A stretch of 64,000 nucleotides of DNA from an uncultured Verrucomicrobiota bacterium (GCA_964617825.1 CAZTWL010000004.1:7546-71545); one strand, 5' to 3'. Positions 1 to 61,928 are shown, counted from the stretch's first letter. Program-made: numbers and translations. The notes: generated by a model from the sequence alone, not told the origin.

Positions 1-401
1 CCGAAGCCGGTGGCAAGGATATCAGCGCCAAGATCGACAGCTTTAAGGGTATGATCGAGCGGGTTAAGAAAGCCTATCCCCATGCTTCCGCCTTTGCCAC
101 CACCTTGCGCGAGGTCATCAGCACCAATCGCCACCTCTGGGGCGCGATCATGGCCGAAGGCGCCAACTGGCATGTTGTCGAACCACGCGAAATTACGGTT
201 CTTGATCGGATCGGGGGCGGCGACGGCTTTGTCGGCGGTATGCTCTACGCCATCCTTAAAGGCTGGTCTCCTGACAAATGGATTCAATTCGGCTGGGCCA
301 GCGGTGCATTGGCTACAACCCTTATGACCGATTACGGCCAGCCTGCGGACGAAGAACAGGTTTGGAGCATCTGGAAAGGCAACGCGCGGGTCAGACGCTG
401 A
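1..401 (+). CDS. PfkB-family sugar kinase (2-dehydro-3-deoxygluconokinase-like), C-terminal fragment; 5' end lies outside the window
   Basis: Open frame runs from the window edge to a TGA at 399-401. The C-terminal GGGDGFVGGMLYAIL motif matches the PfkB anion-hole/ATP site. Confidence 0.7.
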   Translation, partial: EAGGKDISAKIDSFKGMIERVKKAYPHASAFATTLREVISTNRHLWGAIMAEGANWHVVEPREITVLDRIGGGDGFVGGMLYAILKGWSPDKWIQFGWASGALATTLMTDYGQPADEEQVWSIWKGNARVRR

Positions 402-445
402 CCGGAGTTGCCGGATCACTTCCGGCGGCATTCATGCTGCGGTTG

Positions 446-480
446 AAAAAGGGCTGTCGGCCACTCCGGCAGCCCTTTTC
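446..480. terminator. Bidirectional rho-independent terminator between convergent genes
   Basis: aaaagggctg (447-456) pairs with cagccctttt (470-479) around a 13-nt loop. An A-tract lies on one side and a T-tract on the other. Confidence 0.6.
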
Positions 481-484
481 CGGG

Positions 485-814
485 TTACTCCATCTCGTAA
501 TTAGTCAGGCCCCCATAAATCTTGAGGGTCATATTCTGCCCCTGGGGGATCGTAACAGATACCTGCCCTTGCACGGTTTGCCCCACCCAACTTACCAGAT
601 GCGCGTTGGTACTGACCTCGATGATCTGGATCGAGTTAGTCGGCGAATCCTGCTGCCGGACCATATCCAGAAAGATGGCCAGCCGCTCGCCGGACCGGTT
701 GCTGATCGTCAATGTCGCCCAATTGTCCGACGATTCGCATGAGATCAGCACGGTCGCCATGATTACCAAGGCACTCATCGCCATCAAACAACCAAGCCGG
801 CACAACTTCTTCAT
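485..814 (-). CDS. Small lipoprotein (hypothetical)
   Basis: Internal ATG at 814 is preceded by aaaggagg. The product begins MKKLCRLGCLMAMSALVIMATVLISC, a signal peptide with a lipobox-like Cys. The longer ORF to 1042 lacks an RBS. Confidence 0.5.
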   Translation of the reverse strand: MKKLCRLGCLMAMSALVIMATVLISCESSDNWATLTISNRSGERLAIFLDMVRQQDSPTNSIQIIEVSTNAHLVSWVGQTVQGQVSVTIPQGQNMTLKIYGGLTNYEME

Positions 815-1022
815 GATGTGACCTCCTTTAGGGTTTGACCGTTCATAATTCTTCAATTGCAAGAGCGCTTGAAAACCGTTGCCGCTCCACAGCTCGCCGC
901 GGGATAAGCGCGAACCAAGGTTTTTAGTATAGACGCGATCATTGCGGAGCAAAAGCCATAAACCACGAAACAAACCGGCAATCTTATCCGTGCCGACCGG
1001 ATTATTCGCATTCTTTGCGGAG

Positions 1023-2342
1023 TTATCGGCGCTCCCTGGCATCTTCCCATGCTAATGTTGAACCATCGGTGCGGATCAAGACGGTGCGTGGCAAGGGCTT
1101 GATAAAATGCTGACGCAGACTGTAGGTATAAGCGCCCTGTGCCGGTATCAGGAGAACGTCGCCGGTTCGAATGTCGTTGCCGTAATACGAATATCCCCAG
1201 ACATCGTGCGGCGTGCAGAGCGCGCCAAGGACATGGAAAGGGCGCTCGACCGGTCCCGGACGCGACAGGTTGATTACGGGAAAAAATTCGCTTTCGTACC
1301 GTTCCCAACCCACGGTGTTGGTCCCCGCGTCCGTGATGGCGATATCCTCGCCTTTGCGATCAAGCACGCTGAGCAGGATGTGCATGCTATCGTTGCAAAT
1401 CCAGCGGCCGGGTTCCGCGCAAATTTGACAGCGGATATGCGGAAACACCTCGATTTTAAGCGCGGCGCCAATCCGTCGGGCAAATTCGCCGATCGCGGCT
1501 GCGGGCTGAAAGCTGCGGGCCGGACGGCAGCCTAGCGCCTTCACGGTTGCGCCGGCGGAATTGTTTGACAGGGGTTCCAGCGACCATGAACCGGGAGGCG
1601 GCCAATAACCGCCGCCGATATCGATAAACTCGATCTGCGTCCGCATCGCTGCCGGCAGGAGCCGCAAGGCTGCGCCCAGACGCCCTACAAAAGCCACGTG
1701 CGCCGTGGGGTCCATATTCCAGCTTGTATGGAATTGCAGTCCGCGCAAATCCACATGCGTTGCGCGCATCGCTTGTTCGATAAATCCGGCCAGGTCAGCG
1801 AGCGCAATCCCGAATTTTCGCCACAGGCCACGCTCATCGGTGGTCAGCCGCACGCCGGCGCGGATCGTCGCGTTCTCCTGCTTAGCCAGGTGTTCCAATC
1901 GTTCCAGCTCTCCCAGACTATCCAGCAGCACCGTCACCCTATCCCGATGGCGGATTGCCAGGCCCAGTTCATCGCCAGTTTTTGCCGGTCCGCTGAACAC
2001 AATGCGTTGGGCGCCGGCCTCAAGCGCCAGCCGTAATTCTTCTCCGCTCGAGACGTCGAGTCCAAGCCCGGCCTTCACAACGGCTGCGACGATCAGGGGA
2101 TGCGAATTCGACTTTAGGGCGTAATAAACCTGCATGCCCGGCAATTCGGAACGAAACGCCTCCGTGAATGCCCTGGCCCGGTCCAAAACGGTCTGTTCCT
2201 CGATCACATACAAGGGTGAGCCGTGCTGGCGGACAACGCTCAGGAATAATTCGCGCCGTTCGGAGTACATGCCTACAAATGCGTCGAGTTCGTCCGGCTG
2301 CTTGCCCGCATTCGATTTGTGCATGTTTTGCGGTAGGCTCAT
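1023..2342 (-). CDS. Fold-III PLP-dependent decarboxylase (Orn/DAP/Arg decarboxylase family)
   Basis: YALKSN PLP-lysine motif, GLGLDVSSGEEL, GGG and EPGRW motifs. Its ATG (2342-2340) overlaps the TGA (2341-2339) of the upstream gene as ATGA. Confidence 0.8.
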   Translation of the reverse strand: MSLPQNMHKSNAGKQPDELDAFVGMYSERRELFLSVVRQHGSPLYVIEEQTVLDRARAFTEAFRSELPGMQVYYALKSNSHPLIVAAVVKAGLGLDVSSGEELRLALEAGAQRIVFSGPAKTGDELGLAIRHRDRVTVLLDSLGELERLEHLAKQENATIRAGVRLTTDERGLWRKFGIALADLAGFIEQAMRATHVDLRGLQFHTSWNMDPTAHVAFVGRLGAALRLLPAAMRTQIEFIDIGGGYWPPPGSWSLEPLSNNSAGATVKALGCRPARSFQPAAAIGEFARRIGAALKIEVFPHIRCQICAEPGRWICNDSMHILLSVLDRKGEDIAITDAGTNTVGWERYESEFFPVINLSRPGPVERPFHVLGALCTPHDVWGYSYYGNDIRTGDVLLIPAQGAYTYSLRQHFIKPLPRTVLIRTDGSTLAWEDARERR

Positions 2343-4597
2343 ATGCATTTGGCGGCGGCAATTTTCACGTTCAACTTTGCATCGATCGCGCGGCAATCCG
2401 CCTCGATGTTTTCTGAGGCTGAAGGCTGAAAAATGGCGTAGCCCAGCATACGCGATTCAAAACTTTCAGGCGGTTGAAGCACGCGCTGCCCCGGGCCCCG
2501 TTTAAGGCTGACCTCCAGCACACGCGGATCGCTGCTTACGGCATCGGTATCGATGGCCGTTATAACTCCGGATTGCGCGGTAAAAAAACGCAAGCCGACC
2601 CGGCGTTGCCATTGCGATGCCGGCGGGATACTGACGGGACGCTGTTCGGCGAAATCAAGCGCCAGGGCCAGGATATCGAGCCCGCAACTCGACCGGATTA
2701 GCGGCGGCAGGCAGTCACCCCCGGGACGCGGGGCAATTTCGATCAAAACCATGCGGTTATCTTCCATGATGAAGTCAACCATGCACAGTGCACGGTCAAT
2801 TCCCACCGCTTGCGCCGCCGCACGTAATTGCTGTTCAAGCGCGCCATTAGTCATGCCCGGTACAGTTTCCGGCAGCTGATAGGCCAGGACCGTGCCGGGG
2901 GTAAGTTCCGGCTGCAGCCATTTCTTGGCGATGCGGATGACCTCGATCTTGTCGCCATCGATCATGAAATCACAGCTGTATTCCGGCCCCTCGACCCACT
3001 CTTCCATCACCACCGTGCGCCGCGGATCCACCCGGAGTCCGCCGTATTCGTAGGGCGCATACATCCGGGCAGCCGATTGCCCGGCCAGTCGATCACGCAT
3101 GATGTCAAACGCGAGGATACACTCGTCAGCCGTTTTACAAACGAAGACTAACTCGCTTCCTGAACCAGTCAGTGGTTTTAGAACCGCTTTCTGCCGTCGG
3201 CAAAGGCCGAGAAACTGCACCGCCTGCTCGGCCGTTTCGATCTGCCGTGAGGCCGGGCAGGAAAGGCCGGCGCGTTCCCAGCATTGTTTCGAAATGTATT
3301 TGCTGCGGCAGGTCACGATGGCCTCGGCTGACGGGTACGACAAGGATAATTTGTTTGCGATAAACGCAGCCAAAGGCATGGACTCGCAATCGAAACACGC
3401 TACGCCGCTCGCCCATAGGCCGTAGTGCGTCAGATGGCGGCGGATACGAGCCAATCCTTCTTCCGGTTGATCGAGCGGGCAGAGCACCTCGCCGGCCGAA
3501 CTGGGCTGCGGCTCTTTAGCGCGTTCCCGTTCAAGAGGATCGGTGACGAATACCACCCGGCTGGGAAAACGGCGATGGATGATGTCGATGTAATCCGAAG
3601 TCGTGCCAATGACCAGAACCCGTCCACCCTCCAGCCCATGCGTTACCCCGCCCGATATTCTTTCTGTGGTTGGTTGCGTCGCGGCAAAAGCAGCATTGGA
3701 AAGCAGATAAAGCGGGCATGGGGTCAGGTGAAAAAGTTTTTTCCACGAAAAATCGCCACATAGAAAATCAGCAACCTGGAAACGCTCGCTGCAGGTCCGC
3801 TGCAGATGATGCATGTTGATCAATTTGGCGACTCCGGGATACTCGGCATGCGTTCCTCCACCCACAAGCGCGTATGCGCCGTTAACGAGAATGCCAATGT
3901 CGATTGCCGCCAAATTGCCGCCCAGGCGCAAACTTGTCAGGCGCAGCCAACCTCGCTCACGGGATAATTGCATTAGGCTGCGAAAACTCTCGAGGAAACG
4001 ATGGTCATGAAAATAGGAATTAGCGCCGAAACGTTCGACGTTCATGGCGATCATCTGGTCGAAATCGGGCATGACGTCGTATAAATATTCAACTCCGGAT
4101 GACTCAAGCCCAGCCAATTCGCGTTTCAATCTTTTGGCCGATTTGCCGGAGAACTCGTGGAAATACATCTGCAGATCATAGCCGTACATCTGGGGGAAAA
4201 ATCGATAGGAGATCTCATCCACCGTTTTTTGCATCCGGGATGCAGCGGAATTGGCCTTCAAATACCGGAGGTGATATGGTCCGGGACACGCTTCCAAGAG
4301 TGCCTGTACCATGGCATCGCCATTGGCGATAATTCGATTTTGCTCCAGCCAAGTTGCCTGATGCCACGTTTCCCCGGGGAAATACTGATAACAGCCGGCC
4401 TCTTCAACCCAGCTCAAGGGCAGGAAGCCAGCCTGACCCTGATTGTCTTCCGCCACAATGAAACAGGCCGGACGCTGAAAGTGCTTGTGAAAACAGGCGC
4501 GGACATCCCAATTATCCCACAGGGTCTCCTGCGGTATGAAGCGTTCCCAAAGCAAACGACATTCGGACAGGTCGGTCACGATGCGATGTTTGATCAT
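2339..4597 (-). CDS. Fusion protein: FemAB/CelD(BcsL)-like GNAT domain + pre-ATP-grasp + ATP-grasp ligase domain
   Basis: The N-terminal ~300 aa resemble the CelD/FemAB acyl/aminoacyl-transferase fold. A central RVLVIGTTSDYIDIIH Rossmann-like segment precedes a C-terminal ATP-grasp signature (KAVLKPLTGSGSELVFVC ... MVLIEIAPRPGGD). It is one continuous 752-aa frame. Confidence 0.65.
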   Translation of the reverse strand: MIKHRIVTDLSECRLLWERFIPQETLWDNWDVRACFHKHFQRPACFIVAEDNQGQAGFLPLSWVEEAGCYQYFPGETWHQATWLEQNRIIANGDAMVQALLEACPGPYHLRYLKANSAASRMQKTVDEISYRFFPQMYGYDLQMYFHEFSGKSAKRLKRELAGLESSGVEYLYDVMPDFDQMIAMNVERFGANSYFHDHRFLESFRSLMQLSRERGWLRLTSLRLGGNLAAIDIGILVNGAYALVGGGTHAEYPGVAKLINMHHLQRTCSERFQVADFLCGDFSWKKLFHLTPCPLYLLSNAAFAATQPTTERISGGVTHGLEGGRVLVIGTTSDYIDIIHRRFPSRVVFVTDPLERERAKEPQPSSAGEVLCPLDQPEEGLARIRRHLTHYGLWASGVACFDCESMPLAAFIANKLSLSYPSAEAIVTCRSKYISKQCWERAGLSCPASRQIETAEQAVQFLGLCRRQKAVLKPLTGSGSELVFVCKTADECILAFDIMRDRLAGQSAARMYAPYEYGGLRVDPRRTVVMEEWVEGPEYSCDFMIDGDKIEVIRIAKKWLQPELTPGTVLAYQLPETVPGMTNGALEQQLRAAAQAVGIDRALCMVDFIMEDNRMVLIEIAPRPGGDCLPPLIRSSCGLDILALALDFAEQRPVSIPPASQWQRRVGLRFFTAQSGVITAIDTDAVSSDPRVLEVSLKRGPGQRVLQPPESFESRMLGYAIFQPSASENIEADCRAIDAKLNVKIAAAKCI

Positions 4598-5154
4598 GGT
4601 TGTTGACGAAAGGATTGGGGATCAAGTCTATAATTACCGTTGAATAGCGATTGATCCTAACATTCTCGCCTTTTTTTACATGGAGTCCGGCTTTTGTTCG
4701 AAGCGATGGCGACTCCACAGTGCTTCTCCGCCTTAATACGGCCCAAAAGGCAATGATCAGGCGTAATTAATACCGGTTCTACCCTCCAATGTCGCGAATA
4801 CGGTATAGACCCATTTGCCCGCTGGTTACCCAAATATCATTTTCACTTTCTTTTTGCAACGTTGTATCAGGACATTTTTTGGTTGGCACCAAAAATTCGC
4901 CACTGAAATTGTCGCGGTTGGCCGATGCAGGCGTGCAGCGTGCATTTCGTTCGATTATAAGGGGACAATATATCTTCGTCGGAGATAAACTGGCGCGGAC
5001 AATTTCCGTGCCCGCGCACAAATAAACGCAGGTTACTGGGCATCTTGATCATCTGGCTCCAGCCGTAGCGCCGTGGCAGACGGATAACCCGGTGCGGGTG
5101 CCAGGCCTTGACGGCGCTTAACATCGAGCTAGGATCCTGAGTGGCCCCAGGACC

Positions 5155-5511
5155 CTACCCCTTGTCTTGTCCATGTTTGTACTTGATGACCTGGACCTTT
5201 TCGATTGTGATCAGCCCTCCGCATTGAGCCGATTCGAATAACGCATCCAGCAATGGCATAAACCGGTCGATTTTGTCAGCCTCGTCGACTATTTCGACAA
5301 TGATTGGCAGATCGGTGGAGAGATCCAGGATCTTTGTCGTCCGGATTCGACTGGTTGGGCCGAAACCCAATATCCCCCGCCAGACGGTGGCTCCGGCAAG
5401 TTCCATTCTCCTTGCCTCGCGTACAATGGCCTCGTAAAGAGCCGTGTGCTTGACCTTGTCGTCTTCGCCCAGGAAAATCCGCAAGAGCTTGGCGTCCCGA
5501 TTCAGTTCCAT
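5155..5511 (-). CDS. DUF190 family protein (CrcB-associated, PII-like fold)
   Basis: 118 aa, immediately downstream of and overlapping crcB by 10 nt. The DUF190-crcB pairing is a recurrent arrangement. Confidence 0.7.
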   Translation of the reverse strand: MELNRDAKLLRIFLGEDDKVKHTALYEAIVREARRMELAGATVWRGILGFGPTSRIRTTKILDLSTDLPIIVEIVDEADKIDRFMPLLDALFESAQCGGLITIEKVQVIKYKHGQDKG

Positions 5512-5912
5512 TGTCCGCCTCCCATTCTAACGAGCAACCGTATCGCCATTATTCCGATAAAGAAAGCCATCATGGAGAGAAACAATGAACTGGCCAGGTA
5601 ACATGCGGCATGCAGATATTCGCTGGAGCGCAGCATTTCGACAATCTCGTAGATCATAGAAGACATCGTGGTAAATCCGCCGCAGAATCCGGTTGCCAAA
5701 AGGAGACGGACTTCAGGCGACATCGTTTCGCCGCGGGCCGCCAACTCCGCGATTATGCCGATCAGGAAACACCCCCCGACGTTTGCGGCCAGCGTCCCTA
5801 ACGGCCATTCGAGCGACAAACGTTGCGACATGACGCTCAGTCCGTAGCGCGCAAGCGACCCGGCAAAGCCGCCGATGCCCACGAGAATTGAAGCTGTTCC
5901 CGGATGTGCCAT
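5502..5912 (-). CDS. crcB: Fluoride ion channel CrcB/Fluc
   Basis: GxxGxxRY-type N-terminus (GGFAGSLARYGL) and the GFCGGFTTMSSM motif across four TM segments. Start chosen is the ATG at 5912-5910, giving a ~136-aa product. Confidence 0.85.
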   Translation of the reverse strand: MAHPGTASILVGIGGFAGSLARYGLSVMSQRLSLEWPLGTLAANVGGCFLIGIIAELAARGETMSPEVRLLLATGFCGGFTTMSSMIYEIVEMLRSSEYLHAACYLASSLFLSMMAFFIGIMAIRLLVRMGGGQWN

Positions 5913-6329
5913 TAGTGTCTCGCCGTAAATCTTGTGCAAAGACAATCTATCTGCCTTGCCGCCCCAAGGTCAATGCCATAATGATTTCATGTCATGCTTC
6001 GCCGCCTCCCGAGGATGGGCTGACAAAACATTGACCAGCAAGAACAAGCAGCATATCCATGTATATCTGATATGGTAGCAGACGAGGTCAGATCAGGGCG
6101 CGATATAATCCGAAACATACCATTTACGTCAGCCTTATCTTCATCTGTAAACATTCAACCGTGTCTGGCGACTGGACGGTTAAATAAGGTTTGCGTATTT
6201 AGTCGGCGGCATAATTAACGCGGAACGAAGAAAATCAACGCGGGTTACGGATGGAACCCGCAGCCTGCATTGGCCCCGTTTTGAAGTTTGTCCTGTAATT
6301 ATCCGGCCTTATTCATTATCTTGTTACCG

Positions 6330-7679
6330 ATGAACAAGGCAACCACAGCACGCATCCTGATCATCGAGGACGATCCCGATGGGCGCCGCTCTCTGGCGGA
6401 AGCCATGGAAGAAAGCGGGTATCTGGCCATTACCGCCGCCACCGGAGAAACGGGTATCCGCCTCTTCAAAGATCAGACTTTCGATGCCGTGCTTTCGGAT
6501 ATCCGGCTTCCGGACATTGATGGACAACAGGTGCAGGAACGCCTAAAGGAAATCAACGCCGATGTCCCCGTCCTGCTGATGACCGCCTTTGGCACCGTAT
6601 CGGCCGCTGTGAATGCGCTAAAAGCCGGCGCCTATGATTATATCCTCAAGCCGCTTAACCTGACGGACATTCAGTCCAAGGTGGCGCATGCCATTGAAAA
6701 CCGCCGCTTACGCTCACAGGTGTTGTCTTTCAGAAAAGCGCTCTATGGTCGCGAGATTATTGCCGTTTCACCCGGGATGGTCGAAGTGCTCCGGCAGGTG
6801 AGAACCGTTGCCGCCACCCAGGCCACGGTTTTGATTCTCGGAGAAAGCGGCGCAGGCAAGGAATTAATTGCCCGCGCCCTGCACGATGGTAGCTCGCGCG
6901 CCGATGGTCCTTTCGTGGCCGTTAACTGCGGGGCTTTTTCGGAATCCCTGCTTGAATCGGAACTGTTCGGCCATGAAAAAGGCGCTTTTACCGGGGCAAC
7001 AGCTCAACATGCCGGCGCCTTTGAGCGCGCCGAAGGCGGCACGCTCTTTCTGGATGAAATCGGTCTTGCCCCACCTTCCGTACAAACCAGGTTGTTGCGC
7101 GTCCTGGAAGAACGCGAAATAATTCGCGTAGGCGGCACCCGCTCAATTCCCGTAAACCTGCGCGTAATTTCAGCCTCCAATCGCAACCTTGATGATCTTG
7201 TTGCCGAGCGCAGCTTCCGCCATGATTTGCTTTATCGCCTGCAGGTGGTTACGATCCACGTCCCGCCCTTGAGGAAACGCCAGGAAGACATTCGGCCGCT
7301 TGCAGATTTTTTCATCGCAACCGCCTGCAGTTTGCATGGCCGCCACATCGACGAAATCGATGATGGTTTTTACAAAACGCTGGAGAGCCATCCTTGGAGC
7401 GGCAATGTCCGTGAGTTAAAAAACGCGGTTGAATCGGCGGTCATAATGACCGCCACACCAAGGTTGACCGCCGCCAGCCTGAAATTGGCGACGCCTGGCG
7501 AGCGCACCAACACGGAAATTGTCATTCCCCCGCGGACCCCATTGGCGGAGATTGAACGCCAGGCGCTTCTGCAGTCGCTAACCCGTTGTTCCGGAAGCCG
7601 GAATTTGGCAGCTGCCGAATTGGGACTTTCTACGCGTACCATTCAGCGCAAGATCAAGGAATATGACCTGCCATTCTGA
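6330..7679 (+). CDS. Sigma-54-dependent response regulator (NtrC family: REC + AAA+ sigma-54 activation + Fis-type HTH)
   Basis: REC domain (ILIIEDDPD...D) followed by GESGAGKE Walker A, the GAFTGA motif (EKGAFTGATAQ), and a C-terminal LAAAELGLSTRTIQRKIKEY HTH. Confidence 0.9.
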   Translation: MNKATTARILIIEDDPDGRRSLAEAMEESGYLAITAATGETGIRLFKDQTFDAVLSDIRLPDIDGQQVQERLKEINADVPVLLMTAFGTVSAAVNALKAGAYDYILKPLNLTDIQSKVAHAIENRRLRSQVLSFRKALYGREIIAVSPGMVEVLRQVRTVAATQATVLILGESGAGKELIARALHDGSSRADGPFVAVNCGAFSESLLESELFGHEKGAFTGATAQHAGAFERAEGGTLFLDEIGLAPPSVQTRLLRVLEEREIIRVGGTRSIPVNLRVISASNRNLDDLVAERSFRHDLLYRLQVVTIHVPPLRKRQEDIRPLADFFIATACSLHGRHIDEIDDGFYKTLESHPWSGNVRELKNAVESAVIMTATPRLTAASLKLATPGERTNTEIVIPPRTPLAEIERQALLQSLTRCSGSRNLAAAELGLSTRTIQRKIKEYDLPF

Positions 7680-7948
7680 GCGGACACTGCGCTTTGAGAT
7701 GTTTTAGAGATCGCCTGATCCGGATGAATCTTCCAACGGATTGACCGAAAATACGCCACGGATGGCGGCGAAATCCTCGTCTTCCAATACATTTGGATAG
7801 CGATATCCGCAATGGCCACGTAATCATGGTCGGTCATGTTTACGACAAAATGTCCGGTTCGCAGACAGCTTGTCCTGCCGGCGCTGCCCAAACTCGGCGG
7901 ACCTTGATCAATTCGAACGATTTCGTGCGCTGTCGATTTTACCGATCC

Positions 7949-7966
7949 CGAGCGCATAGGCGCTCG
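7949..7966. promoter_or_regulatory. Perfect inverted repeat CGAGCGC-N4-GCGCTCG, candidate enhancer (UAS) for the adjacent sigma-54 activator
   Basis: 7-bp arms separated by 4 nt, lying ~60 bp upstream of the -24 element. Confidence 0.35.
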
Positions 7967-8012
7967 TTTTTCGGCGGATCTGCGATTCCTTGCCAGTTGC
8001 GCAAAACTTACT

Positions 8013-9072: not shown

Positions 9073-9255
9073 TTTTCAATTTTTTTTATGGAAGAAAAAA
9101 CGCGCGTGAAAACAAATCTTGCCGCGGATGCAAAAACGACTTAATTCTGCTTGCGCTTGCATTTGCATCCAAGGTGTCGGAGTCCATGGTTGATTTCGTT
9201 AGGTTGCGGGTCTTTGCCCGCTTCAGTGGTACCAATAAAGGAGAGGAGAGACCTG

Positions 9256-10191
9256 ATGTTGGCAGTTAAACAGCTTAAAAAAACATTCGGACTGATCCAT
9301 GCGGTCCGGGATGTGTCTTTCCAGGTTGCCCAGGGCGAAGTCCTCGGCTTTCTGGGCCCCAACGGTGCAGGCAAGACCACCACGATGCGCATGATCACCG
9401 GCTTCCTGCCGCCGACATCCGGCACCGCCGTCATTATGGGGCACGATATCACCGGCGAACCGATACAAGCTAAAAAGCTGATCGGGTATCTGCCGGAAAA
9501 TGCTCCGGTTTATGCCGACATGACGGTCTGGAATTACCTGGGATTTATTGCCGAAATCCGTGGCTTTACCGGACGAAGACGCGCAGAACGCGTCCAGCAA
9601 ACCATCGAAACCTGCCGTCTGGATGCCGTCAAGCATCAGGCCATCGGGACTCTTTCCAAGGGTTATAAACAGCGCGTGTGTTTTTCCCAGGCGCTCCTGA
9701 ACGATCCGCCGGTGCTCATCATGGATGAACCTACCGACGGTCTCGATCCTAACCAGAAACATATTGTCCGCACCATGATTCGCGAGATGGCCGCGCGCAA
9801 GGCCATCGTGATTTCAACCCACATCCTGGAAGAAGTGGAAGCCATCTGTACGCGCGCCATCATTATCCGCGACGGCACAATTGTCGCCAACGCCACGCCG
9901 GCCGAACTGAAGGCCAAAAGCCGTGAGCATGGCGCGGTGGAACTGTATGTCAAGTCGGCCGCCGGAGACCTCGCTGCTAAGCTGGAGCGCCTGGCTTCCG
10001 TCGCCCGCGTGGAAGTCCAGCCGCACCGGGTGGTGGTCTATCCCCGTCCTTCAGCCAATAACCCGGCCCAACTGGCGCCCGACATCCTGGCACTGTTCAA
10101 GGCCAACCCCGCTTGGGAACTGACCGCATTTAAAACCATGGAAGGCCGCCTGGACGATGTTTTCCGCGATCTGACCGAATCGAAGAATTAA
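9256..10191 (+). CDS. ABC transporter ATP-binding protein with long C-terminal extension (GldA-like)
   Basis: Walker A GPNGAGKTT, LSKGYKQR signature, Walker B LIMDEPT. The ATG at 9256 follows a ggagaggagag RBS. Confidence 0.85.
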   Translation: MLAVKQLKKTFGLIHAVRDVSFQVAQGEVLGFLGPNGAGKTTTMRMITGFLPPTSGTAVIMGHDITGEPIQAKKLIGYLPENAPVYADMTVWNYLGFIAEIRGFTGRRRAERVQQTIETCRLDAVKHQAIGTLSKGYKQRVCFSQALLNDPPVLIMDEPTDGLDPNQKHIVRTMIREMAARKAIVISTHILEEVEAICTRAIIIRDGTIVANATPAELKAKSREHGAVELYVKSAAGDLAAKLERLASVARVEVQPHRVVVYPRPSANNPAQLAPDILALFKANPAWELTAFKTMEGRLDDVFRDLTESKN

Positions 10192-10368
10192 ATCCGGCGA
10201 ATAATAATCAACAAGACGAATTATCCGTAAAGAACATAACGCGCGCCAAGATTCGATACTACTGGAAATCAGCGTAGCCTTTTTTGCTCTATTTGAGATC
10301 TTGCGCGGCTAATAAATTGGAGAGCGGGCACAACCCGCCTTAGTTCCAGCGAACAAGGAGATTGATCT

Positions 10369-11112
10369 ATGGATTCCATGCGCAATACCAAGGCCATTAT
10401 CAAACGCGAACTGACCTCCTATTTCGAGTCGCCAGTGGCTTATGTATTTATGGTGGTCTTTCTAATGCTGATCGGGTTCCTGACCTTTTTCGTATCCCGG
10501 TTTTATGAAGGCGGACAGGCCGATTTGCGCGGCTTTTTCTTCTGGCACCCGTGGATGTTCCTGATCCTTGTGCCGGCCGCCGCCATGCGGCTTTGGGCCG
10601 AAGAACGCCGCGCCGGGACCATTGAAACCCTGTTGACCCTGCCCGTGACCATTACCCAGGTAATCGTTGGCAAGTTCCTGGCAGCCTGGTTTTTTATCGG
10701 ACTGATCGTGGCCCTGACGTTTCCCATCGTGCTGACCACGGCCTACTTGGGTGCCCCGGATCGCGGAGCTATCATGGGCGGGTATATCGGCAGTTTCCTT
10801 TTGGCCGGCGCCTATCTCTCGGTCGGCATGCTGACCTCGGCCATGACGCGCAACCAGGTCATCAGTTTCGTACTCTCGCTGGTTATCTGCCTGTTTCTCC
10901 TGCTCGCCGGCTGGCCGCCCGTGACGGATGTCATGGCGCGCTGGGCGCCGGAATGGCTGGTACGCGGCGTGGCCGCCTTCAGTTTTATGCCGCATTACGA
11001 TGCGTTCCAGAAGGGTGTGCTCGACCTGCGCGACTTTGTCTATTATTTCAGCGTGATGATCTTCATGCTGTTCGGCACAAACCTGGTTTTGGAAAACCGG
11101 AAGGCCGCCTGA
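10369..11112 (+). CDS. ABC-2 family permease (GldF-like)
   Basis: Six predicted TM segments. The N-terminus (IIKRELTSYFESPVAYVFMVVFLML) is typical of GldF/ABC-2 permeases. Confidence 0.75.
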   Translation: MDSMRNTKAIIKRELTSYFESPVAYVFMVVFLMLIGFLTFFVSRFYEGGQADLRGFFFWHPWMFLILVPAAAMRLWAEERRAGTIETLLTLPVTITQVIVGKFLAAWFFIGLIVALTFPIVLTTAYLGAPDRGAIMGGYIGSFLLAGAYLSVGMLTSAMTRNQVISFVLSLVICLFLLLAGWPPVTDVMARWAPEWLVRGVAAFSFMPHYDAFQKGVLDLRDFVYYFSVMIFMLFGTNLVLENRKAA

Positions 11113-11239
11113 TCGCATTTCGAATTGCTGCTGGATGATTGATGATTACCAATCGGAAAGCATCAATCCGAAATTAATTTGGCATTGACCATAAACGATC
11201 GACCATTTCAGTCGAATTGCGCAATATAAAGGAAAAATT

Positions 11240-13162
11240 ATGAAAGCACGGCTTCTTTGGAAATTCACCGGCAGCCTTGTCGGCCTGCTGGCCATCCTGG
11301 CCATCCTGATCGCGGTCAATATTATCGTCAGTCACGTCAGGCTGCGGGCGGACCTGACGGAAGAAAAGCTCTACACGCTTTCGGACGGCACCCGCGCCGT
11401 TCTCCAATCTCTGGGCCGGCCGGTATCCCTCAAGTTTTTCTTCTCCGGCAGCTCAACGGAAATCCCCATCCCGCTCAAAAATTTTGCGCGCCAGGTGGAG
11501 GATTTGCTCAAGGAATACGAGCTGGCTTCCGGCGGCAAGCTGCTGGTTGAAACCTACAATCCCAAGCCGGACTCGGATGCCGAGGAATGGGCGCAACGCT
11601 ACGGACTCGCCGGCGAACAACTTGGCTTGGAAGATGGCGCGCTTTATCTGGGGCTCGTCGCCGTGCAGGGCGACAATCACGAGGTTATTCCGTTTCTCGA
11701 TCCGCGCAACGAGGAAATGCTGGAATACAACATTACCCGCATGATCGCGCGCGTGGCCAACCCCAAAAAACCGGTTCTCGGCATCCTGAGCAGTCTGCCG
11801 GTCATGGGCGTGCGCTCGTTCCCATATGCCATGCCTGGCCAGCCGCGGCCCAAGAGTTCGCCGCCCTGGGTGGCCTTCAAGGATCTAAGCAAGGATTATG
11901 ACGTGCGCCAATTGGCCGTCGATACGGAGGTCATCGACCCTGCAATCGACGTTATGATCGTGGTGCATCCCAAGAACGTGCCGGAGAAAACACTTTTTGC
12001 CATCGACCAATTCATCCTGCGCGGCGGGCGCCTGCTGGCATTCGTCGATCCGCTCTGCGTCTCCGACGCCATGAACCAGGATCCTTCCATGGGCGGCATG
12101 GATCGGCCCATGTCCGACTTGGGCCCGCTTACCGCCGCCTGGGGCATCACCTACGAGCCCGACCAGGTTGTTGCCGATCTTCTGGCAAGCACCCGGGTGC
12201 AAAGCGGCAACAACCAGATTGAGAATAATCCCGTGTTTCTCAGCTTGCGCAATGTGAATATCGACGGGAAGGACATTGTCACCTCCTCGCTCGAATCGCT
12301 GGGGCTGCCCGTTGCCGGCGCATTTTCCGGCGCCGGGGTGGAAGGCTTGAGCGTCGGCACCCTGCTGGTAACCTCGGAGCAGTCGGCGCTTGTCAACACG
12401 ATGGTTGCCCAGATGGGCGCGGAGTCTGTCCGCCGTGGCTTCAAGAGCGGGGAGAAGCGCCTGAACCTGGCCATCCGCGTGCAGGGGAAATTTAAAACGG
12501 CTTTCCCGCAAGGCAAGCCCAAGCCGGCGCCGGAAACCGGCAAAAAGAAAGCAGACGCCAAGGAACCCGCGAACTCCGACGACAACACCCCGGCCTTAAA
12601 GGAAAGTGTCAAGCCCAGTTCCGTTATTCTGGTGGCGGATGTCGACCTGCTTTATGACGCTTTCGCCGTTCAGGAAATTCCGATTTTCGGACAGCGCATG
12701 TATCAGCCGCTGAACGACAATATCAGTTTCTTTGCCAATGCCGTCGACCAGCTTTCCGGCAGTGCCGACATGGCCAAGATCCGCGCCCGCGGTCGGGTTG
12801 ACCGCCCATTTGACCGCGTCCAAAAGCTCCAGAGCGAAGCGCAACAACGCTGGATGGCACAGGAACGCATGCTGCAGGATCAGTTGGCCTCAACCCAGGA
12901 AAGGCTTGAAAACCTGCAAGCCAAGAAAGACAAAAGCCAGCGCTTCATTCTCAGCGCCGAGCAGGAACAGGAAATCGCCAAGTTCAAACAGGAACAAATC
13001 AAGACCCAACATGAGCTCAAGCAGGTTCGCAAAAACCTGCGCGAAGGCATCGAGGTGCTTGGCGTCAAAGTCAAGGTCATCAATATTCTGGCCATTCCCC
13101 TGCTGGTGTGCCTGGCGGGGCTGGCTTTTGGCTGGCAACGGCGACACAGTGTAAGGCGCTGA
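11240..13162 (+). CDS. GldG-like ABC-transporter auxiliary protein
   Basis: N-terminal TM, the DLTEEKLYTLSDGT motif, a large periplasmic domain, a C-terminal coiled-coil and a final TM. Confidence 0.7.
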   Translation: MKARLLWKFTGSLVGLLAILAILIAVNIIVSHVRLRADLTEEKLYTLSDGTRAVLQSLGRPVSLKFFFSGSSTEIPIPLKNFARQVEDLLKEYELASGGKLLVETYNPKPDSDAEEWAQRYGLAGEQLGLEDGALYLGLVAVQGDNHEVIPFLDPRNEEMLEYNITRMIARVANPKKPVLGILSSLPVMGVRSFPYAMPGQPRPKSSPPWVAFKDLSKDYDVRQLAVDTEVIDPAIDVMIVVHPKNVPEKTLFAIDQFILRGGRLLAFVDPLCVSDAMNQDPSMGGMDRPMSDLGPLTAAWGITYEPDQVVADLLASTRVQSGNNQIENNPVFLSLRNVNIDGKDIVTSSLESLGLPVAGAFSGAGVEGLSVGTLLVTSEQSALVNTMVAQMGAESVRRGFKSGEKRLNLAIRVQGKFKTAFPQGKPKPAPETGKKKADAKEPANSDDNTPALKESVKPSSVILVADVDLLYDAFAVQEIPIFGQRMYQPLNDNISFFANAVDQLSGSADMAKIRARGRVDRPFDRVQKLQSEAQQRWMAQERMLQDQLASTQERLENLQAKKDKSQRFILSAEQEQEIAKFKQEQIKTQHELKQVRKNLREGIEVLGVKVKVINILAIPLLVCLAGLAFGWQRRHSVRR

Positions 13163-13209
13163 AAATCAATTAATGTCTCAATCGCTAGATATTTACCGGG
13201 AGATGGATT

Positions 13210-14529
13210 ATGAAGATACGCAATCTTGTTTTACTCGTGATATTGGCCGTGGCCTTGGCCGGTTGGGCTGCCTGGACCATGCGTCCGCAACCGCAACCGG
13301 GCACAGCCCTGATTGGCACGCGCGTCCTACCCAAGCTGCCCGTCAACCAGGTGAGCAAAATCGTGCTGACCACGGCAACGAACACCCTGACCCTGGCAAA
13401 GGTTAAAGGTATCTGGACCGTGGCCAACCGGTTTAACTATCCAGCGGCCTTCGACAAAATTGCCGAGAATCTGCTCCAACTCAGCGAGATAAAAGTCGGT
13501 CAGGTAATTGCCGCCGATGAATCACAGAATGCCGCCCTCAATCTGCTGGATCCCGCCGCGGGAGATAAAAAGCAATCCGGGACACGCGTGGAATTGAAAG
13601 ATGAAAACGACGGGATGATTGCTATGCTGCTCATTGGCAAGCCGTTTATGCGTCAGTCTCCGGAAGGCGGCCAGCAAGGACCGCTTTCCATGGGCGATTA
13701 TCCGGACGGGCAATACGTGAAGACATCCGCAGGCCGCATATTCCTCGTCGGCCAAACGTTCGATCGCTTGACCGATGGCATTGAGAACTGGCTGGCCACC
13801 GAGTTCGTCAATGTCGCCGCTAACGATATCCAGAACATCACGGTGACTGCGCCCGACCGCGCGCCGATAAAGCTCGTGCGGTCAAAAACAAGCGAGGCCT
13901 TCACGCTTGAAGGCTTGAAAGAAGGGGAAGGCACATTAGATTCCGCCAAGGTCAACCAGATGGCTGGGGCGCTGAATATGCTGGGGTTTGACGATATTGC
14001 CGCCCCTACTCTGTCATCCAAGGAAACCGGAATGGAGCACCCGGTGATCTTCGAGGCTTCTACCCGCCAGGGACGAATTTACACCTTGCGTATCGGCAAT
14101 ACACTGACCAACGACACGTTCGACCGCTATCTCAAGGTGACGGTGGACTGGAAAGCGCCGGCCGAGGCCAAAGACAAGGATGCCGCGATGGCGGTTACGA
14201 CAAACGCGGTGGATGCGGCCAAAGCCGAACGGCAAAAAGCGGACGAGGCCGCAAAGAATGCGGCGGAAGCCAAGGCGCTGAACGACCGCCTGGCAACCTG
14301 GACCTTCATTATCAAGTCATATCGGGCGGAGCCGTTGCTGATCAAGCGCCAGGACCTGATTAAAAAAACCGAGCCGGCCGGAGAACAGAAGGCGAATGAC
14401 AGCATCCCCACCGTGACTCCCGAGGCAAAATCAGGGCGCCAGGCAAAGAATGTCGGGGACGAGAAAGCGCCGTTGAATTCCCAAAATCAAGCGCTGAACT
14501 TCAAGCCGCAAAATAAAATCGAGGAATGA
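13210..14529 (+). CDS. DUF4340-like periplasmic protein commonly paired with GldG-type ABC systems
   Basis: Signal/TM N-terminus with the LTLAKVKGIWTV pattern, directly following the gldG-like gene. The domain assignment is made from memory, not from a search. Confidence 0.45.
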   Translation: MKIRNLVLLVILAVALAGWAAWTMRPQPQPGTALIGTRVLPKLPVNQVSKIVLTTATNTLTLAKVKGIWTVANRFNYPAAFDKIAENLLQLSEIKVGQVIAADESQNAALNLLDPAAGDKKQSGTRVELKDENDGMIAMLLIGKPFMRQSPEGGQQGPLSMGDYPDGQYVKTSAGRIFLVGQTFDRLTDGIENWLATEFVNVAANDIQNITVTAPDRAPIKLVRSKTSEAFTLEGLKEGEGTLDSAKVNQMAGALNMLGFDDIAAPTLSSKETGMEHPVIFEASTRQGRIYTLRIGNTLTNDTFDRYLKVTVDWKAPAEAKDKDAAMAVTTNAVDAAKAERQKADEAAKNAAEAKALNDRLATWTFIIKSYRAEPLLIKRQDLIKKTEPAGEQKANDSIPTVTPEAKSGRQAKNVGDEKAPLNSQNQALNFKPQNKIEE

Positions 14530-15569
14530 CCGATCCGACCATCTATCATCAACCGCTGACCATGCAGGAGATAATCCATATGGACCACACCGAAATCACC
14601 AAGACGACCGACATGATTCACGAACAGACCAAGGCCATCGACAGCGTGCGCCAGGAAGTGATGAAAATCATGGTGGGCCAGGAACACATGCTGGACCGCA
14701 TGCTGATTGCGCTCATTACCGGCGGGCATATCCTTCTGGAAGGCGTGCCCGGACTGGCCAAGACCACGGCGGTCAAAACGCTGGCCCAGTCGCTGGGATT
14801 GAAATTTCATCGGATCAGCTTTACGCCGGACCTCTTGCCGGCCGACCTGATCGGCACGATGATTTACGACCCGCGCACCGGAACATTTTCAGTCAAGAAG
14901 GGGCCGGTCTTCACAAACCTTTTGCTGGCGGATGAAATCAACCGGGCCCCGGCCAAAGTGCAGTCGGCCCTTCTGGAAGCCATGCAAGAACATCAGGTGA
15001 CAATCGGCGATCAAACCTATCCTTTGCCGGAACCGTTCATGGTCATGGCTACCCAAAACCCCATCGAACAGGAAGGCACCTATCCCCTGCCCGAGGCGCA
15101 AATCGACCGTTTCATGCTCAAATGCAAGGTGACCTATCCTTCCAAGGATGACGAACGCCGGATCATGAACCGATTCACGCGCAAACACGATGAAGAGATA
15201 AGCGCAGTCATGTCGTCCGATCAGATCTTCCTGTTACGCGACCTGCTGGACCAGGTCTATTGCGACGAAAAAGTGGGCGAATACATCCTCGACCTTGTCT
15301 TCGCCACACGCCAGCCATCAATTTACAATATTCCCGTGGATCACCAAATCCAGTACGGCGCATCGCCGCGCGCCACGCTTTATCTGAACCTGGCTTCCCG
15401 CGCCAATGCCATGCTTCACGGCCGCGGTTATGCCACGCCTCAGGACGTCAAGGAAATCGCCCACGATATCCTCCGGCACCGCATAATGCTGACTTACGAA
15501 GCGGAAGCGGAAGAAGTGACCAGCGAGGACCTGATCACGCGTCTTCTCAACGATATACCGGTGCCTTGA
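14526..15569 (+). CDS. MoxR-family AAA+ ATPase
   Basis: LLEGVPGLAKT Walker A and LLADEINRAPAKVQSALLEAMQE. The start overlaps the upstream stop as ATGA. Confidence 0.9.
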   Translation: MTDPTIYHQPLTMQEIIHMDHTEITKTTDMIHEQTKAIDSVRQEVMKIMVGQEHMLDRMLIALITGGHILLEGVPGLAKTTAVKTLAQSLGLKFHRISFTPDLLPADLIGTMIYDPRTGTFSVKKGPVFTNLLLADEINRAPAKVQSALLEAMQEHQVTIGDQTYPLPEPFMVMATQNPIEQEGTYPLPEAQIDRFMLKCKVTYPSKDDERRIMNRFTRKHDEEISAVMSSDQIFLLRDLLDQVYCDEKVGEYILDLVFATRQPSIYNIPVDHQIQYGASPRATLYLNLASRANAMLHGRGYATPQDVKEIAHDILRHRIMLTYEAEAEEVTSEDLITRLLNDIPVP

Positions 15570-15677
15570 ATAATGGACAAGGGGTAACGGCCAACGGCAC
15601 TTGTTGCTCATTGGCCAAGGCCGGTTTGCATTAGTCCGTTTTTTGCCATCGATTAACCATCAACTACTTTTTTTAAA

Positions 15678-16568
15678 ATGGCCATTGATACCAAAGAATT
15701 GATGAAGCACGTCCGCCGGATCAAGGTGGTTACGGCCAAGCTTGTGGATGAACACATATCCGGCGAGTATCACTCCGTCTTCAAGGGGCGCGGCATGGAA
15801 TTCGACGAAGTGCGCGCCTATGTGCCCGGCGACGACGTGCGCTCTATCGATTGGAACGTGACCGCGCGCATGGGGCACCCCTATGTCAAGCGCTTCTGCG
15901 AAGAGCGGGAATTGACGATTATTTTCCTGGTGGATATTTCCGGCTCCATGATTTTCGGGTCCGGATTGCGTTCCAAAGCCGAGGTGGCCGCCGAACTGAC
16001 CAGCCTCCTGGCGCTTTCAGCCATAAAAAATCAGGACAAGGTCGGAATGATCCTGTTCTCCGACCGGATCGAGCGCTATATTCCTCCGCGCAAGGGCCGG
16101 ACGGCAGCAATGCGCCTGGTACGGGAGGTCTTGGCAGCCGAGGAAACGCGCCATGAAACCAACCTTGGTGTTGCCCTGCAATTCCTGAATAAGGTGCAAA
16201 AACGCCGTTCGGTGGTTTTCCTGATTTCCGATTTCCTGGCCACGGGATATGAAAAGGAATTGCGGATCATGTCGCGCCATCACGACCTGATCGCCTGCCC
16301 GATTTCAGACCCCCGCGAGCGGACTTTGCCAGATATCGGACTTTTGGAACTGGTCAACCCGGAGACCGGCGAACTCATGCTGGCGGACACCAGTTCCAGC
16401 CATCTCTTGAAATCGTTTCAGGCTCAGGCCGCCGCGGAGGAGCAGGCGCGCGACAAGCAATTCCAGAGGCTTAAAGTTGATCGCCTGGCACTGACAACCG
16501 ATCGTCCCTTTGTGGACGATGTCCGCCGGCTTTTCCACCTTCGCCAGCATCGCATGCATCGGGGCTGA
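15678..16568 (+). CDS. DUF58 (vWA-like) protein of MoxR-Bat operons
   Basis: Hallmark GxYxSxFKGRGMEFDEVRxYxPGDDVRSIDW and an FLVDISGSM MIDAS-like motif. Confidence 0.85.
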   Translation: MAIDTKELMKHVRRIKVVTAKLVDEHISGEYHSVFKGRGMEFDEVRAYVPGDDVRSIDWNVTARMGHPYVKRFCEERELTIIFLVDISGSMIFGSGLRSKAEVAAELTSLLALSAIKNQDKVGMILFSDRIERYIPPRKGRTAAMRLVREVLAAEETRHETNLGVALQFLNKVQKRRSVVFLISDFLATGYEKELRIMSRHHDLIACPISDPRERTLPDIGLLELVNPETGELMLADTSSSHLLKSFQAQAAAEEQARDKQFQRLKVDRLALTTDRPFVDDVRRLFHLRQHRMHRG

Positions 16569-16573
16569 AGAAA

Positions 16574-17701: not shown

Positions 17702-17722
17702 AATAAAGAAACGATTCCCGTC

Positions 17723-18757: not shown

Positions 18758-18761
18758 CGTC

Positions 18762-56380: not shown

Positions 56381-56624
56381 TTTTCCACCGAACTTCCGTC
56401 GCGGCATCTTCTGTGTACGGACCAACAACCAGGCCCTGGCTTACGCCACCGGTTGAGTCTTTACGACTATTCGAGAACCTGGCGTAGATTGCCGAGTCAA
56501 ACGCCGAGCGTCAAGAAAAACCAATTTTCATCTTGCCGCTTGTCTATGCCTCGTCAGTCTGCAATACTCTGGGCCCGTTGAAAGTTAAGGGCGCCTTGAA
56601 TCCGGGATATTGCAGGAGGAGCTT

Positions 56625-57812: not shown

Positions 57813-57887
57813 AATTTGCAATACCTCTTCGCGTGCTGGCCGGAGCAACATGTCCATGAAAACACAATTTATCATGGAGAAAATATG

Positions 57888-61915: not shown

Positions 61916-61928
61916 ATGTATTCTTCTC

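Follow-up and report, generated by a model that had tools for sequence, protein, structure and literature searches.

A gene fusion in a Verrucomicrobiota genome as the reduced form of a widespread, uncharacterised gene cassette with a possible role in putrescine conjugation

The routes of polyamine biosynthesis count as largely mapped, with modules built on SpeE, on carboxyspermidine dehydrogenase and decarboxylase (CASDH/CASDC) and on HSS/SpeY. One clade of SpeD homologues consists of pyruvoyl L-ornithine decarboxylases (SpeDC), which are recognised by diagnostic Gln, Thr, Phe and Tyr residues and by the loss of the proline of S-adenosylmethionine decarboxylases (AdoMetDC) (Li et al., PMC10407285). 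Among pyridoxal-phosphate (PLP) dependent decarboxylases with the fold of FigC, specificity rests on the loop after the catalytic Cys and on a 3-10 "specificity helix", which is neutral in FigC (T327, T330, Y331), whereas acidic helix residues hold the distal amine in lysine/ornithine decarboxylase (L/ODC), arginine decarboxylase (ADC) and CASDC (PMC7857480). The tRNA-dependent tandem GNATs possess a catalytic Lys in the C-terminal GNAT subdomain, which is K305 in FemX and belongs to an aromatic-Lys pair, F328-K329, in DhpH-C (PMC12945691). Here we analyse a 64-kb stretch of DNA from an uncultured Verrucomicrobiota bacterium (GCA_964617825.1, CAZTWL010000004.1:7546-71545). This whole stretch is called the window, and all coordinates given without a locus name are counted along it. 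A ClpX-like protein that it encodes is 85% identical to a protein of a metagenome-assembled Kiritimatiellia genome and has its other near matches in Verrucomicrobiota and Lentisphaerota, in line with an uncultured bacterium of the PVC group. Its positions 1023-4597 encode, on the minus strand, a fused GNAT/ATP-grasp protein followed by an alanine-racemase-fold PLP decarboxylase, a pair that is the reduced, fused form of a five-gene cassette.

The fusion joins two genes which are separate, adjacent or overlapping, in about 75 other loci, and the unit of interest is therefore the cassette. Its recurring gene order is a TetR-family regulator, a homologue of the AdoMet_dc family, an Acetyltransf_6 GNAT, an ATP-grasp protein and the PLP decarboxylase, all on the same strand and tightly packed. 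When one genome per GTDB species was surveyed, 202 of these representatives, drawn from more than 12 phyla, proved to hold relatives. Locus counts were taken from the best 80, all of them metagenome-assembled genomes (MAGs), by open reading frame (ORF) and BLAST survey, restricted to loci whose flanks were long enough. All 76 such loci have the GNAT; the decarboxylase was found in 73 of 74, the AdoMet_dc homologue in 66 of 72 and the TetR regulator in 41 of 67. This pairing of genes is far beyond chance, and the association of ligase and decarboxylase that the first-pass annotation had seen in the window alone is conserved in related genomes. All-against-all clustering of the loci recovered no further gene conserved in more than one fifth of them. 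These 80 genomes belong to Planctomycetota (Sedimentisphaerales, Pirellulales, Phycisphaerae, Brocadiaceae), Desulfobacterales and other Thermodesulfobacteriota, Ignavibacteriales, Zixibacteria, Omnitrophota, Krumholzibacteria, Acidobacteriota, Hydrogenedentota, Lentisphaerota, Verrucomicrobiota, Nitrospirota, Armatimonadota and others. Each of the enzyme families is known by itself, and the fused, reduced form is rare. The cassette is uncharacterised, as had been suspected of the fused architecture: a full-text literature search returned no paper describing it, and its proteins stay below the cut-offs of the curated models for LysA, FslC, N-acetylglutaminylglutamine synthetase (Ngg) and the XrtA-type proteins.

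The AdoMet_dc homologue of the cassette is, judged by its residues, a SpeDC-type ornithine decarboxylase predicted to make putrescine. The four diagnostic residues, within QLIETSLISAHF...Y.DVFSC, are found in 69 of 70 cassette homologues, which also have the processing Ser, the His and the Cys and have lost the AdoMetDC proline. They are 52-59% identical to the validated ornithine decarboxylase (ODC) domains of the SpeD1SpeD2 fusions of D. phosphitoxidans and Omnitrophica, compared with about 29% to the AdoMetDC domains of the same fusions, and reach 27 bits with TIGR03330 (SAM_DCase; cut-off 75.65). A tblastn search of the 64-kb window returned no SpeDC homologue. The window does contain, about 57 kb from the fusion pair (60530-63038, minus strand), overlapping genes for a carboxy(nor)spermidine synthase/dehydrogenase (60530-61948; 472 bits, below the cut-off of 800) and the carboxynorspermidine decarboxylase NspC (61929-63038; 423 bits, above cut-off). 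These represent the alternative spermidine/norspermidine pathway and imply that the organism runs a diamine/polyamine metabolism.

The fusion gene (2339-4597, minus strand, stop included) encodes 752 aa, as established by its ORF, translation and Pfam domains, and an identical protein is already in the databases. Its 3' end reads AAA TGC ATA TGA, with the ATG of the decarboxylase gene inside ATATGA, so that the stop TGA (2341-2339) overlaps the start ATG (2342-2340) as ATGA (2339-2342). This overlap, read directly in the sequence, agrees with the translational coupling that had been proposed, and the homologous fused loci L001/L002 likewise show a 4-nt overlap with the decarboxylase gene. The 439-aa decarboxylase that starts at this ATG (1023-2342, minus strand) is the exact gene product recorded for the source NCBI contig of 156 kb. 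A longer, mechanically called ORF (1023-2396) was rejected as the decarboxylase gene; its TTG start falls within the fusion gene.

A database search with the fusion protein recovered only four fused proteins, namely itself, P0002 (69% identity), P0003 (64%) and P0011 (35%). Hundreds of further matches, at 45-56% identity, were ATP-grasp proteins of about 436 aa that stand alone. Fused ORFs are present on at least five independent contigs: the window, L001/L002 (from two JGI samples), L087, L088 (75% identical) and L006. In split loci the end of the GNAT gene and the start of the ATP-grasp gene lie only a few bases apart, and in the aligned fused proteins an in-frame linker of 20-30 residues, variable in sequence and length, occupies the place where the split proteins end and begin. 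The linker of the window protein (residues 303-324, 3626-3691, minus strand) appears flexible, with AlphaFold 2 (AF2) confidence (pLDDT) below 50 at residues 303-317 and 318-321. In the ATP-grasp part, P0011 is only 32% identical to the window protein, to which the split proteins are 44-54% identical and thus closer; the fusion therefore arose at least twice. The fusion is evolutionary and not a frameshift or assembly artefact. The first-pass annotation had described the fused form, which is real but untypical. The window clade (window, L001, L087) lacks both SpeDC and TetR, and its two-gene module occupies three unrelated neighbourhoods; L006 retains SpeDC upstream of its fusion.

The N-terminal domain (residues 1-302, 3692-4597, minus strand) belongs to Acetyltransf_6 (PF13480, CelD/BcsL-type), with a match at residues 153-287 (E 3.7e-17, 63.3 bits, cut-off 22) that split homologues, stand-alone proteins of about 320 aa, also pass. 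As first annotated, a transferase of the predicted family shares one 752-aa protein with the pre-ATP-grasp and ATP-grasp segments. The AF2 model (pLDDT 83) has a double-GNAT fold. Its 14 best Foldseek matches in the PDB are aminoacyl-tRNA-dependent tandem GNATs or DUF2156-type relatives (Sbb17/Sba18, FemX of Weissella, 2hqy, MprF), with about 320-350 aligned columns, E values of 1e-10 to 1e-8 and a TM score of about 0.55-0.6 to FemX, Sbb17/Sba18 and MprF. One of the matching Sbb17/Sba18 structures carries the amine acceptor streptothrisamine, and MprF-related aminoacyl-phosphatidylglycerol synthases are likewise among the best matches. Thirty members of the GNAT family share 64 invariant columns, including W285-K286 near the C-terminus (30 of 30). 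The FemAB model TIGR03019 gives 13.3 bits for the window domain and 30.8 bits for the split homologue of L003 (E 1.5e-7), against a cut-off of 260; the domain has no match to Pfam FemAB (PF02388), and a family-profile search of the PDB returned noise only, with no sequence-level link to a solved structure. Fold, conserved Lys and the pairing with SpeDC together make aminoacyl-tRNA the most likely predicted acyl donor.

The C-terminal part (residues 325-752, 2342-3625, minus strand) consists of pre-ATP-grasp, ATP-grasp and C-terminal domains and matches ATP-grasp_4 at residues 471-629 (E 7.7e-12, 45.6 bits, cut-off 27) and ATP-grasp_3 (39.6 bits, cut-off 23.2). A match to LAL_C2 at residues 670-746 (28.9 bits) is just below the cut-off of 29.4 and is recorded for several homologues. 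In the AF2 model (pLDDT 92) the architecture is that of an L-amino acid ligase (LAL); the top Foldseek matches are the LALs BL00235 (3vot, TMq 0.77), RizA and YwfE/BacD, and the structure prediction that had been suggested for this domain thus places it with this class. The residues for ATP and Mg (K157, E303, R307, G309-G310-D311 in domain numbering) are invariant in 35 of 35 members, and CFDCES is a motif specific to the family. The gene context argues for an amine or amine conjugate as the nucleophile, not for a dipeptide made from two free L-amino acids.

The decarboxylase is confirmed as a YALKSN-type fold-III PLP enzyme by matches above cut-off to Orn_Arg_deC_N (102.9 bits, E 2.4e-29) and Orn_DAP_Arg_deC (25.6 bits), and K77 of the PLP-lysine motif YALKSN is invariant in 77 family members; the IGGGY glycine loop and C376 are conserved as well. 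Its description as a LysA-like partner did not hold with respect to specificity. The LysA model TIGR01048 reaches 144.8 bits in two partial stretches (cut-off 297.9), and the best full-length relatives in the PDB are FigC/FslC (7kh2, 2e-23) and BtrK (2j66, 1.3e-18), although the FslC model NF041039 scores only 80.6 bits against a cut-off of 500. The Cys loop reads C-T-P-H-D in 73 of 77 family members, aligned to C-E-S-G-D in LysA and C-M-Q-H-D in FigC. The acidic residue beside the Cys, which in ODC, ADC and diaminopimelate (DAP) decarboxylase contacts the side-chain amine of the substrate (Orn, Arg or DAP), is thus missing. The specificity helix, GWERYESEFFP in the window, has the family form G-W-E-R-(F/Y)-E-(T/S)-(D/E)-(Y/F)-F-P with three conserved acidic residues, and both loop and helix are nearly invariant across the 77 members. 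The position of R387 in FigC is a Leu in the window protein, and the C-x-x-H-D loop is all that is common to FigC. The enzyme is not a LysA, and these motifs suggest a long substrate with an alpha-amino acid end, a neutral link and a distal ammonium group, i.e. a conjugate resembling carboxyspermidine. A third alanine-racemase-fold decarboxylase of the window (56610-57767, plus strand, 385 aa), followed by a gene resembling FAD-dependent oxidoreductases (57816-59219), has lysA as its best match (174.5 bits against 297.9); it is a short LysA or an ODC/ADC-type enzyme of unclear function.

Variants of the cassette indicate which enzymes work together. The SpeDC and GNAT genes overlap or abut, and in L102-L104 they form a pair without ATP-grasp or decarboxylase, which in L103 (5585-6912, stop and start overlapping) lies on a low-GC contig whose neighbouring genes (a TFIIE-alpha-like helix-turn-helix protein, IscS/NifU) suggest an archaeal host or one from the candidate phyla radiation. 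The pair of L106 precedes genes for a CxxCxxCC protein and for a divergent, PurD-like ATP-grasp, and this locus has no decarboxylase. The cassettes of L019 and L049 are broken into a half with ATP-grasp and decarboxylase and a half with SpeDC and GNAT, an ABC exporter lying between them; these exporters (about 9260-11883 in L019, 10564-12273 in L049) are homologous and 61% identical. L019 additionally has a stand-alone LPG_synthase_C (DUF2156) protein of about 300 aa, a second tRNA-type transferase, the gene of which overlaps the start of SpeDC. An 869-aa ORF that would represent a full MprF in this operon was rejected as a reading-frame artefact over the ABC exporter gene and the separate LPG_synthase_C protein. 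These patterns imply that ATP-grasp and decarboxylase form a second working pair and that export is an occasional addition; in 4 of 37 loci a transporter of the major facilitator superfamily (MFS) comes after the decarboxylase.

SpeDC is missing from six bacterial loci, and four of these add a C39-like peptidase after the decarboxylase. A Desulfobacterales subgroup without SpeDC (L005, L027, L031, L035, L043) has a longer GNAT of about 351 aa and, directly after the decarboxylase, a Peptidase_C39_2 protein of about 245 aa (e.g. L005, 10660-11391). Seven loci of Ignavibacteriales and Zixibacteria (L021, L032, L050, L054, L057, L069, L082) carry after the decarboxylase a triad in which an RLAN protein is joined by a RimK-like ATP-grasp and by a fusion of GNAT and DUF3335/C39-like peptidase (e.g. 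L069, 11014-13672), another uncharacterised amidoligase system that may use the same product. Where TetR is absent, a divergently encoded sigma-54 activator is often present instead (among others in L033, L062, L067, L070, L071, L074, L078 and L079; L049 adds a dCache sensor kinase), and a near-consensus TGGCAC-N5-TGCT promoter precedes the first cassette gene in 8 of 12 loci with such an activator and in none of those with TetR.

We interpret the cassette as a pathway that derivatises putrescine to amide-linked amino-acid conjugates, of which the window pair would be a compact, fused version, and assign this interpretation a probability of roughly 45%. In full cassettes SpeDC would decarboxylate L-ornithine to putrescine; in the window lineage, which has lost the dedicated ornithine decarboxylase (and TetR), putrescine would be drawn from the cell's own pool. 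The tandem GNAT would then acylate an amine of putrescine, most likely with an aminoacyl group from aminoacyl-tRNA in the manner of FemX and Sbb17, since the pairing of SpeDC with GNAT (L102-L104, L106 and the halves of L019 and L049) implies that the GNAT acts on the product of SpeDC. The fusion of GNAT and ATP-grasp implies that acylation and ligation are consecutive steps, and the LAL-type ATP-grasp may spend ATP on a second amide that leaves the alpha-amino-acid end free, for example by joining the side-chain carboxyl of Glu or Asp to the free amine of the putrescine conjugate. Joining through a side-chain carboxyl has precedent in MfnD and BtrJ, and the overall logic also recalls that of MfnA/MfnD. 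Finally, the PLP decarboxylase would, as its Cys loop and acidic helix suggest, strip the alpha-carboxyl and create a new terminal amine, so that the end product may be a cationic, amide-linked pseudo-polyamine. The amine-conjugated or polyamine-type product of the first-pass annotation is strengthened by the occurrence of SpeDC in most related loci. The chemistry itself is inferred, from putrescine as acceptor and tRNA as donor to the sequence of steps and the choice of amino acids. Alternatively, the decarboxylase substrate could be an N-delta-aminoacyl-ornithine, as in the route of FigA and FigC.

Several points weigh against the putrescine-conjugation pathway. The interpretation is drawn from sequences, gene neighbourhoods and predicted structures, and the SpeDC references used for the identity values were machine-read by optical character recognition (OCR) from supplementary Fig. 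S5, with some OCR errors. Six of 72 loci and the window clade lack SpeDC, which implies that dependence on putrescine is not universal or that putrescine is supplied from elsewhere. Classical LALs join two free amino acids and activate the alpha- and not the side-chain carboxyl. The likeness of W285-K286 to K305 of FemX and F328-K329 of DhpH-C is judged by distance from the C-terminus, and CoA-dependent tandem GNATs stand close behind in the list of structural matches; at a TM score of only about 0.57, fold likeness cannot separate these from the tRNA-dependent enzymes. It is conceivable, though we think it rather unlikely, that the tandem GNAT is an acyl-CoA- or acyl-ACP-dependent N-acyltransferase on putrescine or an amino acid within an otherwise similar pathway logic, whose product would be an N-acyl amide such as a compatible solute or a cationic lipid-like amide. 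The significant matches to the clavulanate tandem GNAT 2wpw, the glucosamine N-acetyltransferase 5kf1 and VipF agree with this, as do the Pfam label of the domain, "Acetyltransferase (GNAT)", and the precedent of Ngg, in which a GNAT half acetylates before an ATP-grasp half ligates and whose model TIGR03103 weakly matches the ATP-grasp part. However, that match amounts to 18.8 bits against a cut-off of 569, over residues 418-479 only, the 14 best structural matches are tRNA-dependent or DUF2156-type, the closest NCBIfam family is FemAB, the invariant aromatic-Lys pair resembles that of tRNA-dependent enzymes, and L019 adds a second transferase domain of the tRNA type.

The same genes might also serve a secreted bioactive peptide-amine (antibiotic, metallophore or signal), with an ecological role and possibly the very chemistry proposed above; analogues are the LAL products dapdiamide, rhizocticin and tabtoxin and the siderophore routes of FigA/FigC, SbnH and AcsE. 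LALs and decarboxylases of the FigC/SbnH/BtrK type are typical of natural-product pathways, TetR control and occasional ABC or MFS exporters fit, and the two-gene module in three unrelated contexts suggests mobility. We nevertheless hold this to be improbable: a distribution over more than 200 species and more than 12 phyla at 45-55% identity with almost no tailoring diversity better suits a physiological metabolite, and most loci lack an exporter, immunity gene or receptor. Modification of a cell-envelope precursor (a peptidoglycan stem peptide or membrane lipid), by which putrescine or a decarboxylated amino acid would alter the surface charge, has only a slim chance of being correct. FemX, MprF and the ATP-grasp D-aspartate ligase are enzymes with this kind of target, and the first two rank among the top structural matches; in the window, a small lipoprotein gene follows the decarboxylase. 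The envelope role suggested in the first-pass annotation further draws slight support from the MFS transporters, from the ABC exporters inside the operons of L019 and L049 and from the DUF2156/LPG_synthase_C protein of the single locus L019. Yet exporters are confined to a minority of loci, and the conserved neighbours of the cassette include neither mur genes nor genes for lipid synthesis or glycosyltransferases. TetR regulators typically respond to small molecules, SpeDC and GNAT are found paired beside unrelated genes, and the four enzymes appear soluble, no membrane domain being reported. Finally, the view that the fusion is an assembly or frameshift artefact of two ordinary genes, with a plain lysA as neighbour, has a negligible probability. 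While nearly all relatives encode GNAT and ATP-grasp in two overlapping genes, and lysA is by score the top NCBIfam match of the decarboxylase, fused ORFs with an in-frame, variable linker come from different samples on at least five independent contigs, and the distant P0011 (32-35% identity) points to another fusion event of separate origin. The decarboxylase reaches half of the curated lysA cut-off, and the DAP-binding CESGD is replaced by CTPHD in most of the family; a merger of ordinary genes, which the first-pass annotation had allowed for, is refuted by these data.

If putrescine conjugation is taken further, the cassette could constitute a so far unrecognised polyamine branch, in which a tRNA-dependent ligation, an ATP-dependent one and a subsequent decarboxylation would convert putrescine to amide-linked oligoamines; we regard this as possible but doubtful. 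It would be a way of polyamine lengthening independent of S-adenosylmethionine and aspartate-semialdehyde, with the first tRNA-dependent step in polyamine chemistry, and would be widespread in anaerobic and sediment bacteria (more than 200 species, more than 12 phyla). A fourth, amide-based module built on the recently discovered SpeDC would extend polyamine biosynthesis by a new class of products and would explain what several hundred MAG proteins do, from Planctomycetota, Desulfobacterales, Omnitrophota, Zixibacteria and other phyla that are currently labelled "GNAT family N-acetyltransferase", "ATP-grasp domain-containing protein" or "diaminopimelate decarboxylase". The fused form of the window would provide a convenient two-gene entry point, of relevance to the fields of polyamines and of tRNA-dependent enzymes.

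The 5' boundary of the two-gene unit is marked by a terminator-like hairpin (4993-5017, minus strand; 9-bp stem with 7 G-C pairs, T-rich tail), which closes the upstream operon of crcB, a fluoride exporter gene, and DUF190 (5155-5945, minus strand, and 5946-6287). Between hairpin and fusion gene lies an untranslated region of 395 nt (4598-4992, minus strand) with no credible ORF and no Rfam match, which presumably holds the operon's own promoter as a candidate. Neither the 557-nt gap 5' of the fusion gene nor the window as a whole contains a degraded SpeD or TetR gene detectable by tblastn. An Rfam scan of window positions 1-8000 (E<=1) gave a single chance match, with no riboswitch or known RNA upstream of the fusion gene and no fluoride riboswitch or other Rfam family upstream of crcB, and the aligned upstream regions of the window, L001 and L087 share no conserved block or leader. 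A divergent sigma-54-dependent response regulator (6288-7679, plus strand), 1.7 kb upstream of the fusion pair, is homologous to the activators linked to cassettes; as no such promoter was found in the window, where no convincing sigma-54 site lies upstream of the fusion gene, its link to the pair is unproven. The sequence that comes nearest to such a site, GGGCACGGAAATTGTC, forms the loop of the crcB-DUF190 terminator and was rejected as a promoter.

Downstream of the decarboxylase, after 208 nt and on the same strand, follows the gene of a small predicted lipoprotein (485-814, minus strand, about 109 aa) with a signal peptide, the lipobox LISC and an AAGGAGG ribosome-binding site, behind which a strong hairpin terminator is located at about 445-476. 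Because no terminator is predicted between the two genes, the lipoprotein gene may be co-transcribed with that of the decarboxylase, although related loci do not conserve it. Further away, a long run of genes on the plus strand (9151-21698) comprises a GldA/GldF/GldG-like ABC transporter set (9151-13162) and a region resembling the Bat aerotolerance operon (14526-21698), with a MoxR AAA ATPase, a DUF58-like protein and several von Willebrand-type proteins, the last protein having 978 aa and a highly repetitive, Q/K/E-rich tail. PADLOC found no matches to anti-phage defence systems.

Among described systems, the XrtA/PEP-CTERM system is the only curated one in which a FemAB-family protein (TIGR03019) and a LysA-like PLP decarboxylase (TIGR03099) are co-conserved, and these two models are, lysA aside, the best NCBIfam relatives of the two window proteins. 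The decarboxylase reaches 94.5 bits with TIGR03099 against a cut-off of 478, however, and the acyl-CoA ligase, carrier protein and exosortase which define that system are not conserved with the cassette. Ngg (TIGR03103) likewise unites a GNAT and an ATP-grasp in one protein for consecutive steps to a small amide-linked metabolite, but its GNAT is single and classical, its ATP-grasp belongs to a different clade and it has no decarboxylase partner, while the cassette lacks an AsnO-like amidotransferase. In butirosin biosynthesis the ATP-grasp BtrJ and the fold-III decarboxylase BtrK, which decarboxylates a glutamyl carrier protein, reportedly act on gamma-glutamyl conjugates to yield a gamma-aminobutyrate (GABA) unit, followed by an acyltransferase. 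The butirosin route of BtrI, BtrJ, BtrK and BtrH runs on an acyl carrier protein, whereas carrier, monooxygenase and gamma-glutamyl cyclotransferase are not conserved with the cassette.

We know of no tRNA-dependent tandem GNAT fused to an ATP-grasp. The tRNA-dependent tandem GNATs (FemX, Sbb17/Sba18/Orf11, PacB, VlmA, DhpH-C; PMC12945691) have the same double-GNAT fold as the cassette enzyme, and Sbb17/Sba18 aminoacylate a small-molecule amine, streptothrisamine; unlike them, the cassette GNAT has no sequence-level similarity to solved members and falls into Pfam Acetyltransf_6, not FemAB. The rhizoferrin enzymes FigA/FigC (FslA/FslC; PMC7857480) resemble the cassette in that ligation precedes decarboxylation of the conjugated amino acid, and in the C-x-x-H-D loop of FigC, an N-citrylornithine decarboxylase that sits in a clade with SbnH, AcsE, BtrK and MccE. 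FigA, however, is a siderophore synthetase of the NIS type using citrate, unlike the ATP-grasp, and the neutral helix residues of FigC (T, T, Y) contrast with the acidic ones of the cassette (E, E, D/E).

Closest in gene context are the SpeDC polyamine clusters (Li, Liang, Phillips and Michael, JBC 2023, PMC10407285), in which SpeDC similarly stands directly upstream of presumed putrescine-consuming enzymes. The published partners are SpeD/SpeE, CASDH/CASDC and HSS, whereas those in the cassette are the tandem GNAT, the ATP-grasp and the FigC-like decarboxylase, a combination without mention in that study. In the CASDH/CASDC route a diamine is likewise joined to an amino-acid-derived unit, the alpha-carboxyl of which is then removed by an alanine-racemase-fold PLP decarboxylase. 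CASDH forms its C-N bond by reductive amination, while the bond in the cassette, which has no reductase, would be an amide made by the ATP-grasp. Because a genuine CASDH/CASDC pair is present in the window, the fusion module would be additional to the carboxyspermidine route, with which it shares a decarboxylase of the same fold, the specificity helix of CASDC holding the distal amine by an acidic residue much like the acidic helix of the cassette decarboxylase.

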